Source: Patescibacteria group bacterium
Lineage (GTDB): Bacteria; Patescibacteriota; Patescibacteriia; UBA1558; GWA2-36-10
Direction of reading: 5' to 3'
DNA length: 56,817 nt
Assembly: GCA_041650755.1 (NCBI GenBank)
Contig: JBAZKN010000002.1
Coordinates: 135,030 to 191,846 of the forward strand
In this document: positions 3,837 to 55,037 of the stretch, in pieces
Position numbering within the stretch: position 1 is the first letter of the stretch
Layout of the letters: the number at the start of each line of letters is the position of its first letter
Notes under the pieces: generated by a model
The model's input: only the letters and a program-made list of their open reading frames with translations
Databases searched by the model: none
What the model was told of the DNA's origin: nothing
Position numbers and translations under genes: made by a program

Positions 3837-3890
3837 TTTTTTATTGGCAGGCTTTATAATAAATGCCTTTTGGTCACGTTTTCGCCACAC

Positions 3891-3950
3891 GCAGCCCTGA
3901 ACTTAGTGAGCGACCCTGCACTATACGGTGCAGGGGAGCCAAATGGTTGA
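3891..3950 (-). repeat. Orphan copy of tRNA-trailer palindromic module
   Basis: GAGCGACCCTGC-N7-GGTGCAGGGGAG at 3908-3938 has both 12-nt arms identical to 11168-11198 (trailer of tRNA-Arg GCG). Confidence 0.85.
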
Positions 3951-4034
3951 TGGGCGTGTGTAATACTCTTCGGCTCACTCTATGTCAATTATTTCTCCAA
4001 TGGTTGAAGCTCCGAATACAATGAGGAGCTGAAG

Positions 4035-4096
4035 CCACCGATTCGGCCCGAGCTCACGGCCGAGGGCGAGCGAGGAGCCGAAGGCGACGAGTCGAG
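4035..4096 (-). repeat. Palindromic trailer of tRNA-Arg(CCG)
   Basis: 4035-4074 is 38/40 identical to 43962-44001 behind tmRNA. Confidence 0.9.
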
Positions 4097-10894: not shown

Positions 10895-11025
10895 TCGTGC
10901 TAGCACGATGTCCCTCGATGCGCTTCGCTTACTTGGGACATTCGACTAGTGAGTGGTAGAAGTCCGAGGCAAGGCCGAGGATGTAGACCATGAGCGACCT
11001 CGAGCGTAGCCGAGAGGGAGTCGAA
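10895..11025 (-). repeat. Multi-module palindromic trailer of tRNA-Ser(TGA)
   Basis: TTCGACTC-hairpin-TCGCTCATGGTCTAC module followed by ATGTCCCAAGTAAGCGAAGCGCATCGAGGGACAT, similar to the module behind tmRNA; ends in the 14-bp palindrome TCGTGCTAGCACGA. Confidence 0.85.
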
Positions 11026-11115
11026 TGGCGGAGAGTGAGGGATTCGAACCCCCGATCCACTTGCATGGATAACAGTTTTCAAGACTGCCGCATTCGACCA
11101 CTCTGCCAACTCTCC
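11026..11115 (-). tRNA. tRNA-Ser(TGA)
   Basis: GGAGAGT/ACTCTCC acceptor, anticodon loop CTTGAAA, long variable arm, TTCGAAT, CCA. Confidence 0.96.
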
Positions 11116-11153
11116 AAAATTTTTTATATTCGACCCAGCTCTATCAACAAAAG

Positions 11154-11203
11154 TGGCCGAAGGCCATGAGCGACCCTGCGCCGTATGGTGCAGGGGAGTC
11201 GAA
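11154..11203 (-). repeat. Palindromic trailer of tRNA-Arg(GCG)
   Basis: TTCGACTC-CCCTGCACCATACGGCGCAGGG-TCGCTCATGGCC directly after CCA. Confidence 0.85.
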
Positions 11204-11279
11204 TGGCGTCCCCGAGAGGAGTCGAACCTCTAACCTCTTGGACCGCAACCAAGTGCTCTATCCATTAAGCTACGGGGAC
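11204..11279 (-). tRNA. tRNA-Arg(GCG)
   Basis: GTCCCCG/CGGGGAC acceptor, CTTGG-TTGCGGT-CCAAG anticodon arm, TTCGACT, CCA. Confidence 0.95.
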
Positions 11280-40778: not shown

Positions 40779-41126
40779 ATGCGCGCCTGCCTGTGATGGG
40801 ATGATAGTTTCCCGCCGCAGGCGGGACCCCGCCAAAAGCGGTGGCAGCCATCTTGATGTTTTGCCTGTCATCCCGCAGAGCGGGACATAGCGCAGGTATG
40901 GGAATTTATTATTAAGCTCTGCATCTGTCTGATGGGGTGGTAGTTCAGCTGGTTAGAACGCCTGCCTGTCACGCAGGAGGTCGAGGGTTCAAGTCCCTTC
41001 CATCCCGCCAGACAGATGCAGAGCTTTTAAAATTGACGAGCAGGAGGCCTGCCCTGCAAATCGTGAAGCGGTTGTGCGGGGTCGTCCCGCGTTACGGGAT
41101 CCATCCCGCCACAGGCAGGCGCGCAT
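40779..41126. repeat. Nested inverted repeats enclosing tRNA-Asp
   Basis: Outer arms 40779-40803 / 41102-41126 (23/25); inner perfect 18-bp arms 40914-40931 / 41009-41026. Confidence 0.9.
40934..41010 (+). tRNA. tRNA-Asp(GTC)
   Basis: GGGGTGG/CCATCCC acceptor, CCTGC-CTGTCAC-GCAGG anticodon arm, TTCAAGT, CCA. Confidence 0.96.
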
Positions 41127-43805: not shown

Positions 43806-44029
43806 GTCATCCTTCGCCACGGCTACGGATGACATCCTGCGCGAGTTCTGCGAGCTATTTCCGGTGGCCTTCGATTATGAATGTCCTTCGACTCACTTCG
43901 TTCGCTCAGGGCACTCGATTCCAGGGTCGGAATGGTCGGAGGTGCTAATAAGCACCGTAGACCACCGATTCGGCTCGAGCTCACGGCCGAGGGCGAGTGA
44001 GCTTTTTGCGAAGCAAAAGGCGAATCGAG
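43806..44029 (-). repeat. Multi-module palindromic trailer of tmRNA
   Basis: 40-nt block shared with the tRNA-Arg(CCG) trailer, GGTCTAC, CCCTGAGCGAACGAAGTGAGTCGAAGGACAT module, GTCATCC...GGATGAC palindrome. Confidence 0.88.
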
Positions 44030-44407
44030 TGGTGGAGATGAGGGGGATTACACCCCTGTCTGACAAATGTCAAAATAAACGTCTACCAATATAGTTAATT
44101 TTTTCGCTTTGGCTATTGGCTATAAAATTAGCAAAAAACCAATAACCTAGTTAACTTGCGTTTCGAAATATCCAGGTTAACGCTAGATATTCCTAAGCCT
44201 GATAAATGACGCCCCAGCCAAAACCTCAGGCAAGCCATGGTGGAACGGTCTTAAGCGTTAAGCTAAGACTGGTGAAAGTTGAGGAACTTGGAAAAGTTCT
44301 TTGGCTTTCGCAAATAAGTTTTTGGCACTTATTTGGTTACGATTTTACAGTTCGTGAACTGACTGGCAGTTTATCCCTTCACTTGCCGTCGAATATAAAA
44401 CATCCCC
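44030..44407 (-). ncRNA. ssrA: tmRNA; tag peptide (A)KNLFAKAKELFQVPQLSPVLA*
   Basis: 5' GGGGATG pairs with CATCTCC-ACCA including G3-U70; ATAAGT-GCC resume context; lies 5 nt after the smpB stop. Confidence 0.93.
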
Positions 44408-53168: not shown

Positions 53169-53591
53169 ATGAAAATAAAAGCTAAAAAACTATATCCCGA
53201 TGCAATTTTGCCCCAAGCCATGCGCCACGGAGACGCCGCTTTGGATTTGTATAGTTATCGTGATTATACATTGAAACCAGGAGAGCGAGTGGTGGTTGAT
53301 ACCGGGGTGGCATTTGCCATACCCAATGGCTACTGGGGCAATGTCCGTGATCGAGGCGGTCTGCCGGCTAAGCATGGTATTCATACTATGGGGGGCGTGC
53401 TTGATTCCAATTATCGTGGCGACTTAGGCGTTATTGTTATTAACTTAGGAAAAGAAGTTTATCAAATAAAAAAAGGCGATCGCATTGCCCAGATGATTGT
53501 TGAAAAGCATGAAGACATTGAGATAGAAGAGGTCAGCGAGCTTGATGAAACAAATCGGGGAGAAAATAGATTTGCTTCAAGCGGATATTAA
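53169..53591 (+). CDS. dut: dUTP diphosphatase
   Basis: AALDL, RDRGG (RSG-like), GVLDSNYRG, GDRIAQ, RGENRFASSG. Confidence 0.93.
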   Translation: MKIKAKKLYPDAILPQAMRHGDAALDLYSYRDYTLKPGERVVVDTGVAFAIPNGYWGNVRDRGGLPAKHGIHTMGGVLDSNYRGDLGVIVINLGKEVYQIKKGDRIAQMIVEKHEDIEIEEVSELDETNRGENRFASSGY

Positions 53592-53619
53592 TTAAGTATA
53601 AATTTAATAAAGAAAAGCG

Positions 53620-53937
53620 ATGGATAAACAATATTTTGTTTATATTTTGGCAAATTATAAAAATGGGACTTTGTATGTTGGTGTAACCAATGATTTGTAT
53701 CGACGTGTAACTGAACACAAACAAGGTAGGGTAAAGGGATTTACACAAAGATATAAAGTTTATAAATTAGTTTATTACGAAGTCATCGATAATGTCTATA
53801 ATGCAATTACTAGAGAAAAACAAATAAAGAAATGGTATAGAAAATGGAAAATAGAATTAATTGAGAAGTATAATAAAAAGTGGGAAGATTTATATTATAA
53901 TTTATTTGATGGATCTCCGGGTCAAGCCCGAAGATGA
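53620..53937 (+). CDS. Small GIY-YIG nuclease family protein
   Basis: YFVYIL, GTLYVGVTNDLYRRV.EH, KLVYYE, AITREKQIKKW.RKWK.ELI. Confidence 0.92.
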   Translation: MDKQYFVYILANYKNGTLYVGVTNDLYRRVTEHKQGRVKGFTQRYKVYKLVYYEVIDNVYNAITREKQIKKWYRKWKIELIEKYNKKWEDLYYNLFDGSPGQARR

Positions 53938-53994
53938 CAAACATTAGCGGTGTTTTTATTGCTCTGCTAGTCATTCCCACGAAAGCGGGAATCC
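53911..53994. repeat. Inverted pair of GTCAT-tagged palindromes at the GIY-YIG 3' end
   Basis: Minus: GTCATCTTCGGGCTTGACCCGGAGATCC (53911-53938); plus: GTCATTCCCACGAAAGCGGGAATCC (53970-53994, ATTCCC-N8-GGGAAT core). Confidence 0.9.
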
Positions 53995-54017
53995 ATACCA
54001 CACATTAAGATATGTCC

Positions 54018-54445
54018 GGAAAATTTATCGTCTTTGCCGCTCAACTTAGTTCGGGCATGCCCACCATGAGTCGATCGGGACGAGTTATAATAAAAATATA
54101 TGGAGATAAAAAAAGTACAGAAAAAAGTTCATAAAATTTTTTTTGATGATCTAAAAAGCCACAAAATTAAAGCCGGTGACGATTATTTGATTTTAAAAAT
54201 TACCGAAGAGTTGGGCGAATTTGTCCAATCCTATTTGATTCACAAAAAAAGATGCCGACAAGAGAAGTGCTTGTCTATTCAGAAATCCAAACAATCGATA
54301 GCTAGAGAATTGGCCGATGTTTTATGTTTGGTTTTGGTGATTGCCAAAGAACTGGAGATTGATTTAGATGAAGCAGTTTTTAAAAAATGGATTAGCAAAG
54401 AATGGGTAAAATATAAATAATGAACAAAGGAAAATTTATCGTCTT
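54018..54445. mobile_element. mazG cassette bounded by a 17-bp direct repeat duplicating the tmk 5' end
   Basis: GGAAAATTTATCGTCTT at 54018-54034 and 54429-54445; the upstream copy is preceded by ATGTCC (MSGKFIVF remnant). Confidence 0.7.
54100..54420 (+). CDS. MazG-like nucleotide pyrophosphohydrolase
   Basis: KITEELGE...ELADVL...IDLDEA..KK. Confidence 0.85.
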   Translation: MEIKKVQKKVHKIFFDDLKSHKIKAGDDYLILKITEELGEFVQSYLIHKKRCRQEKCLSIQKSKQSIARELADVLCLVLVIAKELEIDLDEAVFKKWISKEWVKYK

Positions 54446-55037
54446 CGAAGGCGGAGAAAAATCAGGCAAAAGCACACAGCTAGAATTGCTGAAAAAATAT
54501 TTGGAAAGTAAAGGCCACCAAGTTGTTTTGACGCGCGAGCCGGGTAGCAAATTGTCTAATATTACCCAAAGCATTCGCGAAATAATTTTAAACAATAAAA
54601 ATACCAACCTGACGGCTCGCGCGGAGCTCCTGCTTTTTTTAGCTGATCGTTCGCAACATGTGTCAGAAATAGTAAAACCCGCCCTAGAACAGGGGAAGAT
54701 TGTACTTTGTGATCGTTTTGACGGCTCCAGTTTTGCTTATCAGGGTGCGGCTCGCCATTTGGATTTAGAGGAGCTAAAACCAATAAATAATTGGGCAAAA
54801 TTCGGCTTAACGCCTGATTTGGTGGTATACTTAGATATAAGCCCAGAGGAGGCGACCAAGCGCAGTCGTGATGAAAAACATGATCGTTTGGATGCTGAAA
54901 ATCAGGCCTTTCATGAGGCAGTACGGGCTGGCTATTTAGAGCAAGCCAAGCAGCCAAATTGGTTTACTGTTTCAGCGGTTGGAGATATCCAAGAAATCGC
55001 TAAAAAAATTCAGCAAGCAGTTGATAAAATTTTATGA
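54420..55037 (+). CDS. tmk: Thymidylate kinase
   Basis: FIVFEGGEKSGKSTQ, TREPG, LFLADR, DRFDGSSFAYQG, PDLVVYLD. Confidence 0.96.
   Translation: MNKGKFIVFEGGEKSGKSTQLELLKKYLESKGHQVVLTREPGSKLSNITQSIREIILNNKNTNLTARAELLLFLADRSQHVSEIVKPALEQGKIVLCDRFDGSSFAYQGAARHLDLEELKPINNWAKFGLTPDLVVYLDISPEEATKRSRDEKHDRLDAENQAFHEAVRAGYLEQAKQPNWFTVSAVGDIQEIAKKIQQAVDKIL

Follow-up and report, generated by a model that had tools for sequence, protein, structure and literature searches.

A small GIY-YIG nuclease gene followed by GTCAT-tagged hairpins in a Patescibacteria genome: a very probable member of the Ssn/SRM system

The DNA analyzed here, called the window throughout, is a stretch of 56,817 nucleotides (contig JBAZKN010000002.1, positions 135,030 to 191,846) from a Patescibacteria group bacterium. 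The genome measures 1.02 Mb with 41% G+C, and its GatB protein is closest to those of Candidatus Komeilibacteria and other Patescibacteria metagenome-assembled genomes. The window contains a same-strand row of genes that reads thyX, an HD-domain gene, dut, ssn, a mazG-like gene, tmk, and gatB. Our subject is the ssn gene, which encodes a small GIY-YIG protein, and the two GTCAT-tagged palindromes behind it, which resemble the hairpins (SRMs) known from the Ssn nucleases of Neisseria and other bacteria. Coordinates with the prefix C lie elsewhere in this genome (handle G000); G and L numbers denote relatives and individual loci, respectively. The gene and its hairpins are arranged as follows.

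53620 to 53937, plus strand: ssn gene for an Ssn-family nuclease of 105 aa with a single GIY-YIG domain (Pfam match, BLASTP, invariant residues, AlphaFold)
53911 to 53938, minus strand: SRM hairpin "type B," GTC-ATCTTCGGG-cttga-CCCGGAGAT-CC, with one T/G stem mismatch and its tag directed away from the gene
53939 to 53969, no strand: 31-nt spacer between two inward-facing tags
53970 to 53996, plus strand: SRM hairpin "type A," NTS-like GTCATTCCCaCGAAAGCGGGAATCCAT, solo, without an outward partner

SsnA of Neisseria meningitidis is a 94-aa single-domain GIY-YIG protein (CDD cd10448) (Chenal et al. 2025, Nat Commun 16:2388, PMC11893778). SsnA binds the NTS repeat (CGTCATTCCCGCGMAVGCGGGAATCYRG, an oriented subset of dRS3) solely as single-stranded DNA (ssDNA), and its cut falls a few nucleotides to the 5' side of the repeat and its GTCAT tag. 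The three bases before the palindrome weigh most for cutting and the C after the palindrome most for binding, and characterized Ssn members do not cut double-stranded DNA (dsDNA). Thousands of SsnA homologues are bordered by related hairpins, the SRMs, which lie within 500 bp of 71% of the homologues and on both sides of 42%. The authors themselves likened the NTS-ssnA-NTS arrangement to insertion sequences (IS) and to REP/RAYT and raised the question of whether Ssn/SRM is a mobile element (PMC11893778).

The window protein matches Pfam family PF01541 (GIY-YIG) with an E value of 4e-18 over residues 4 to 78; GIY-YIG and T5orf172 were the only Pfam hits, with nothing else of note. NCBIfam has no specific model for it. 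For comparison with SsnA we used the orthologue read from an N. meningitidis genome (L267:1480-1788) instead of the deposited CAX49033.1; it was reached through a Correia-repeat scan and is itself bordered by NTS pairs, and the orthologue was also obtained from N. gonorrhoeae genomes. In pairwise BLASTP the window protein and the meningococcal orthologue share 53% identity over 97 of 103 aa (E 1e-33; E 2e-27 per genome), which places the former inside the published Ssn family, whose threshold in PMC11893778 is a BLASTP match to SsnA of N. meningitidis at E<1e-10 covering at least 75% of the query. Its length of 105 aa and its one GIY-YIG domain with nothing extra agree with the size and domain content of Ssn proteins (~90 to 150 aa). 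All residues invariant across 48 homologues, among them Y8, Y19, R29, H33, and E66, are kept. Y8, Y19, and E66 correspond to the catalytic Y6, Y17, and E64 of SsnA, the equivalence of E64 resting on alignment, as the count in the orthologue is off by one. The AlphaFold model (pLDDT 90.8) consists of one compact GIY-YIG domain with 10 floppy, low-confidence residues at its end, and its top fold matches in the PDB were UPF0213 proteins, Slx1, and the N-terminal domain of UvrC, with no Ssn-family structure among the matches. The conserved core stops near residue 96, and the last 9 residues, DGSPGQARR, are hairpin sequence read as codons; heads or tails coded by hairpins occur in many homologues (GFPLSRE, SPGQAGG, SPGSPGQAGG, MDSRLRGND, VIPAKAGIQ, SFPRKRESI). 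The nearest database Ssn proteins are 66 to 71% identical and spread over several phyla. The two other small GIY-YIG proteins of the genome show only 29% (C2:89454) and 26% (C4:31424) identity to SsnA.

Gene and first hairpin overlap: the TGA stop codon (53935-53937) lies inside ATGAC (53934-53938), the tag of the minus-strand hairpin. As ssDNA this hairpin folds with -6.6 kcal/mol (z -2.9). Its tag is directed away from the gene, which makes this hairpin the right end of an SRM-ssn-SRM unit of IS-like build. Type B hairpins recur at ssn gene ends of relatives (loci L007, L008, L016), and homologue tails such as SPGSPGQAGG are coded by this hairpin. The plus-strand GTCATTCCCaCGAAAGCGGGAATC hairpin begins 31 nt past it and has the form GTC-ATTCCCaC-gaaa-GCGGGAAT-C (53970-53993), identical to the canonical NTS core save for one stem base (A for G). 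Its motif ATTCCC-N8-GGGAAT occurs once in the window, against 0.05 expected; as ssDNA it reaches -3.6 kcal/mol (z -1.25), weakened by one A/C stem mismatch. Canonical type A copies exist elsewhere in the genome (C7:17806, C7:17857, C1:367483). Neither window hairpin has lost the GTC tag or the trailing C, and both lie 3' of the gene, within the 500 bp used in PMC11893778 and on one side of the gene rather than both.

The distribution of gene and hairpin was compared over 60 Patescibacteria relatives that share the order and family of this genome but not its genus. An Ssn-type gene was scored as a tblastn-type match (E<=1e-20), and SRMs were scored with a narrower, hairpin-aware pattern, GTCATYCCS-N7-12-SGGRATC, whose backwards control had 0 matches in 61 genomes. 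Gene and SRMs were both present in 20 relatives and both absent in 29, with 9 holding the gene alone and 2 SRMs alone (odds ratio, OR, 32, p 4e-7, per genome). Collapsed by genus, the same table read 14/7/0/19 (p 6e-6). Relatives with an Ssn-type gene had 5.2 SRM hairpins per genome on average, versus 0.19 for those without. In all six genera that held both states and any SRMs, Ssn-bearing genomes had more SRMs on average. At 13 to 14 of 19 ssn loci of the relatives, SRMs lay within ~100 nt of the gene, and complete units of GTCAT-hairpin, ssn, and hairpin-ATGAC were found at L007, L008, and L018. A relative carried between 0 and ~5 Ssn-type copies. Beyond this group, the exact 28-nt Neisseria NTS CGTCATTCCCGCGCAGGCGGGAATCCAG occurs in genomes labeled Planctomycetes, Dehalococcoidia, Nitrospinota, Fibrobacteria, Bdellovibrionales, and many Proteobacteria (L025-L144); among 120 NTS-bearing loci of 8 kb drawn from many phyla, only 3 to 4 encode ssn, which fits dispersed repeats and affords no useful association test. 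Within Neisseria, N. lactamica NS19 has NTS repeats and a UPF0213-type gene but no Ssn-type gene, and none was found in N. polysaccharea ATCC 43768.

Thus, the gene very likely encodes an Ssn-family nuclease whose cognate SRMs are the two hairpins behind it, the whole forming a worn IS-like unit between dut and tmk. To judge from its sequence, the locus is a Patescibacteria example of the published Ssn/SRM system. The preliminary description of this stretch had proposed that a stand-alone GIY-YIG enzyme acts on GTCAT palindromes in a REP/RAYT-like manner. That core idea was right, and for Ssn it had already been demonstrated biochemically (PMC11893778). The same description had named equal abundance of the repeats in genomes lacking the nuclease as fatal to its proposal, and the means of 5.2 and 0.19 SRMs per genome are far from equal.

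Several observations weigh on the other side. There is no SRM 5' of the window ssn gene. Both window hairpins miss the strict degenerate SRM regular expression of PMC11893778 by one stem base each; applied to the genome, that expression gave 7 matches, ~5 of them real SRMs, with neither window copy among them. The second hairpin is weak, as its z score shows, and the locus may be decaying, given this weakness and the missed expression. The genome has 6 exact matches to our own pattern and ~13 SRM-type hairpins at 7 loci, one of them in the window, versus hundreds in Neisseria, which makes a genome-wide role less obvious. In the 9 relatives that have an Ssn-type gene without a match to the narrow SRM pattern, the Ssn proteins are more divergent, and variant SRMs may serve them instead. 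The Fisher p values overstate independence, because the relatives share ancestry. In sum, the unit looks like a worn SRM-ssn-SRM copy that has lost its 5' SRM, bears a mismatch in each 3' hairpin, and has its open reading frame run into the first hairpin.

Repeats of another kind flank stable RNA genes. Immediately behind CCA, the tmRNA gene and about half of the genome's 42 tRNA genes have a conserved ~120-nt trailer built as CTCGAyTCC-hairpin-GTCGCTCATGGTCTTCGACCA ... GTCGAATGTCCCGAGCGnAGTCGAGGGACA (window positions 4023-4096, 10909-11050, 11152-11238, 43901-44045, and most tRNA 3' flanks). Its end hairpin has the consensus TGTCCyGAGCGnAGTCGArGGACA, without a GTCAT tag. Other tRNAs have a double hairpin, TCCCGCC..GGCGGGA CCCCGCC..GGCGGTGG, beside duplicated tRNA ends. 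Neither the trailer hairpin nor the double hairpin fits the SRM consensus. When trailer hairpins were scored with the pattern CCYGAGCG-N1-12-GTCGARGG (0 control matches), they tracked a second GIY-YIG family, typified by the gene at C2:89454-89711, which lies 45.6 kb before the window. Family and hairpin were both present in 31 of the 60 relatives and both absent in 17, with 1 holding the gene alone and 11 the hairpin alone (OR 48, p 1e-6). The second family showed no link to SRMs (OR 1.08, p 1.0), and the association of Ssn with the trailer hairpin was weak (OR 3.5, p 0.05). The 10 genomes without any small GIY-YIG gene had neither SRMs nor trailer hairpins.

The second-family gene lies inside tRNA clusters at 28 of 30 loci (L318-L347), in positions that vary between genomes (Tyr-x-Thr, Met-x-Asn, Ile-x-Phe, Val-x-Ala, Pro-x), often with the trailer element between the upstream tRNA and the gene. 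Like Ssn/SRM, this is a tiny GIY-YIG gene preceded by a hairpin family of its own with which it co-occurs; unlike Ssn, the protein encoded in this genome is only 29% identical to SsnA, the hairpin has no GTCAT tag, and the gene's home is in tRNA clusters. Our literature searches found no description of such a family with trailer hairpins, and the two appear to be a parallel, undescribed pairing. In many genomes a short purine-rich box, GAAAAGCR, directly precedes the ATG in small GIY-YIG genes of either family (window 53607-53619; L006-L008, L318-L345). SRMs show no enrichment at tRNAs: of the 7 SRM loci in this genome, none has a tRNA gene nearby, and in G003, the SRM-richest relative, a tRNA lies within 700 nt of 1 of 20 SRM loci, against ~1.3 expected. 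The window therefore juxtaposes two repeat systems, only one of which belongs to the nuclease encoded there, and the tRNA and tmRNA flank repeats of the window are probably not substrates of its Ssn.

The junction between dut and tmk holds two further features.

54012 to 54038, plus strand: 27-nt remnant of the tmk 5' end, ATGTCCGGAAAATTTATCGTCTTTGCC, outside the Ssn system
54036 to 54062, minus strand: decayed tRNA-trailer-type hairpin (consensus TGyCCyGAGCGnAGTCGArGGrCA), not an SRM and no longer folding (z +0.55)

Within the family the gene order thyX-(HD)-dut-tmk-gatB is conserved. The dut-tmk gap spans at most 15 nt in 6 genomes and holds a short hairpin alone in G008 and G011; elsewhere it contains tdk (6 genomes), an inositol-monophosphatase-like gene (G003), or, here, ssn with SRMs and the mazG-like gene; the junction (window 53591-54420; L289-L305) is thus a site of variable cargo in the family. 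Judged by this order, the ssn unit is an insertion that separates dut from tmk within a conserved row of nucleotide-metabolism genes. The remnant shares an exact 17-nt repeat with the real tmk start (54018-54034 equals 54429-54445, the remnant being compared with 54420-54446) and stands at the same place in the relatives G003 (L289) and G008 (L291). As three genomes share it, the remnant is older than the ssn insertion. A tmk-start remnant and a trailer-type hairpin precede the real tmk in three genera, with the mazG-like gene (54100-54420) inserted additionally here. At the homologous position after the same remnant, G003 has an exact trailer-type hairpin, CCTGAGCGAAGTCGAAGG, which is why we read 54036-54062 as a decayed hairpin of that type; by eye, ~19 of its 24 positions match the trailer copy of tRNA-Lys(ctt). 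Movement of ssn between genomes is in keeping with its homologues: a horizontally moving gene fits best homologues of 66 to 71% identity from several phyla and copy numbers of 0 to ~5 per relative.

Insertion between conserved genes, a GIY-YIG fold, a patchy distribution, and distant best matches are shared by a free-standing homing endonuclease of the T4 Seg type, which would have cut dsDNA at the empty dut-tmk junction of relatives and been copied in by repair, the hairpins being incidental. We consider this extremely unlikely: the protein, at 105 aa, is a catalytic domain alone with no DNA-binding domain, the ssn genes of relatives lie in many contexts other than dut-tmk, and the characterized members of the family, as described in PMC11893778, leave dsDNA uncut. 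The hairpins, moreover, co-vary with the gene across genomes. This covariation bears equally on the idea that the hairpins are ordinary operon terminators or RNA elements unrelated to the nuclease, to which we give next to no credence. They do sit between genes of an operon, and SRM pairs elsewhere lie in terminator-like stems; however, no T-run follows the window hairpins, a terminator scan does not call them, Rfam scans at gathering and E-value thresholds returned no family for them, and the same 24- to 28-nt sequence with its oriented tag recurs across phyla.

The preliminary description had extended its proposal to a single repeat vocabulary, in which one GIY-YIG enzyme nicks or propagates a palindrome family that also marks tRNA and tmRNA ends and accessory genes for cassette capture. 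Some observations favor this: GTCAT does lead one hairpin upstream of tRNA-Asp (40867) and another at the end of the tmRNA trailer (43806), a core TCCCGC..GCGGGA is common to type A SRMs and the tRNA-linked hairpins, the cargo at the dut-tmk junction varies, and Ssn and trailer hairpins are weakly associated, as given above. We nevertheless regard it as highly unlikely. The hairpins at 40867 and 43806, tried as SRMs, do not fit GTCATYCCS-N7-12-SGGRATC even with 2 mismatches. The tRNA-flank repeats follow a different, untagged consensus (CCYGAGCG..GTCGARGG in the trailers) and track the other GIY-YIG family, which resides within tRNA clusters and has no SRM link of its own. SRM loci, in turn, meet tRNAs no more often than by chance (1 of 20 in G003, 0 of 7 here), which leaves the cassette-capture extension unsupported. 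An alignment of 54038 with the tRNA-Arg region near 3891, which had been offered as a link, is real: 54038-54060 matches the reverse complement of 3886-3911 at 20 of 24 columns, the best non-self match in the window. It is not significant alone, as 3 of 30 shuffles of the query reach the same score, and it concerns the other repeat family, since both segments belong, or once belonged, to the tRNA-trailer hairpins.

Though rejected as an SRM on the pattern, the hairpin at 40867 retains its GTC tag and, behind a shorter stem, a C, and may still be a very decayed copy. The palindrome GTCATCC-N14-GGATGAC (43806-43833) looks like an SRM pair reduced to its outer tags, either as a collapsed pair or by chance. 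Within 40780-41126, the tRNA-Asp gene lies inside a perfect 17-bp inverted repeat with outer arms of ~25 bp that hold a reversed copy of the tRNA 3' end; the double hairpin TCCCGCC..GGCGGGA CCCCGCC..GCGGTGG stands upstream of it and, at C4:31370, also precedes the third GIY-YIG gene.

Returning to the Ssn/SRM system, the SRMs of these genomes are mostly outward-tagged pairs (GTCAT-hairpin, spacer, hairpin-ATGAC) of 55 to 130 nt. Such pairs lie at C1:367425-367506 (the atpE-atpF spacer), C7:16950-17053, and C7:17806-17880 and, in G003, at L268-L287. Of 21 pairs (18 in G003 and 3 here), 12 were nested within copy-specific inverted repeats (score of at least 8), versus 8% for mismatched flanks, a control in which the left and right flanks of different loci were combined. 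Two more nested pairs were found in this genome (C7:25720-25791, C3:165982-166094). Many of the stems around the pairs are terminator-like, with an A-run, a stem, and a T-run. At the atpE-atpF spacer an empty and a filled site can be compared: the hairpin GCGGCTCGCCCCG-loop-CGGGGCGAGCCGC is intact and empty in G022 (L350) and G001 (L356) and carries an SRM pair in its loop in this genome (L348) and in G003 (L355), in opposite orientations with respect to the atp genes. G022 and G003 belong to the same genus. Nesting and the empty and filled sites support, without proving it, a picture of mobile SRM pairs with hairpin loops as their targets. That they are non-autonomous mobile elements inserting into the single-stranded loops of hairpins, often terminators, and moved by Ssn is a possibility that we hold as doubtful. 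Another tagged pair variant, GTCATTCTGGA..TAGAATCTAC / GTAGACTCTA..TCCAGAGTGAC, follows the atpE-atpF terminator hairpin in G023 (L351) and G020 (L353).

The likely activity of the window protein can be sketched from its characterized relatives. ssDNA-specific binding and cutting 5' of the tag are carried over by analogy from PMC11893778: Ssn would bind an SRM hairpin extruded from ssDNA and would nick the hairpin-bearing strand a few nucleotides 5' of GTCAT. Because the two tags face each other, both nicks are predicted to fall in the 31-nt spacer (53939-53969), one on each strand. The ssDNA could derive from replication, transcription bubbles, or DNA uptake. ComEC is encoded in the genome, and the literature treats Patescibacteria as naturally competent (PMC12455944). 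On such imported or replicative SRM-bearing single strands, the enzyme would either trim incoming DNA, as in Neisseria, or spread SRM pairs. A Neisseria-like trimming role is plausible by analogy, given ComEC and the presumed competence of the group. A role as a selfish element seems at least as likely, given the ~13 hairpins in the genome.

The likeness to Ssn/NTS of Neisseria extends from the ~100-aa single GIY-YIG domain, 53% identical to the meningococcal orthologue, to the GTCAT tag, the ATTCCCGCG..CGCGGGAAT stem, and the trailing C of the hairpins, which adjoin the gene and co-occur with it. The differences lie in the host, a 1-Mb Patescibacteria genome from a group that goes unmentioned in PMC11893778, in the number of hairpins (~13 here, hundreds in Neisseria), and in the window copy, which lacks a 5' SRM, runs 9 codons into its 3' SRM, and has an activity that is predicted. 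The outward-tagged pairs in the loops of other hairpins, which make up most SRMs here, likewise find no mention in the parts of that article drawn on here. REP/RAYT systems (TnpA-REP, IS200/IS605-type HUH Y1 transposases) also combine a single-copy nuclease gene with bordering hairpins recognized as ssDNA and with repeats dispersed between genes, often as inverted, BIME-like pairs. Their fold, in contrast, is HUH/Y1 instead of GIY-YIG; Ssn has no known covalent intermediate or strand transfer, and its predicted cuts fall on opposite strands at the two ends, as against one strand. The window protein has neither an HUH motif nor a Y1_Tnp fold, Pfam and structure matches alike giving GIY-YIG. Neisseria dRS3 and NIME repeats are targets of IS110-family recombinases, as in the integration of Nf prophages. 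The ATTCCC-N8-GGGAAT core and the NIME-like pairing are shared with these repeats, whereas the oriented GTCAT tag places the copies here in the NTS/SRM subset; neither an IS110-type recombinase nor a filamentous prophage turned up in the analysis of the window, in which no search was aimed at either, and the preliminary description had noted no integrase or transposase. The homing endonucleases SegA-G of T4 and I-TevI share the GIY-YIG catalytic domain and the insertion of the gene between conserved genes, but they carry DNA-binding domains and cut duplex DNA. No DNA-binding region (NUMOD, zinc finger, or helix-turn-helix) was found in the window protein, which has no residues past its catalytic domain and scores 19 bits with TIGR01453 against a cut-off of 56.

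The central interpretation, a GIY-YIG enzyme with tagged hairpins, is thus correct as far as the comparisons reach and already published, and the loop-nested SRM pairs are its modestly novel angle. For annotation, read-through into hairpins explains very common spurious peptide tails (..PGQA.., ..IPAFAGMT.., ..RFRGND..). The 60 relatives form a clean comparative data set, with a specificity matrix for two nuclease/hairpin pairs. Ssn was described only in 2025; our literature search yielded nothing more on Ssn, nor any paper on GIY-YIG hairpin systems of Patescibacteria, and the locus places the system in these ultra-small bacteria. The loop-nested SRM pairs, together with the empty and filled atpE-atpF site, give the mobile-element question raised in PMC11893778 a concrete, testable form. 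If the pairs do insert into hairpin loops by means of Ssn, Ssn/SRM would be a GIY-YIG-driven, structure-targeting transposable element, beyond a domesticated restriction-like system.

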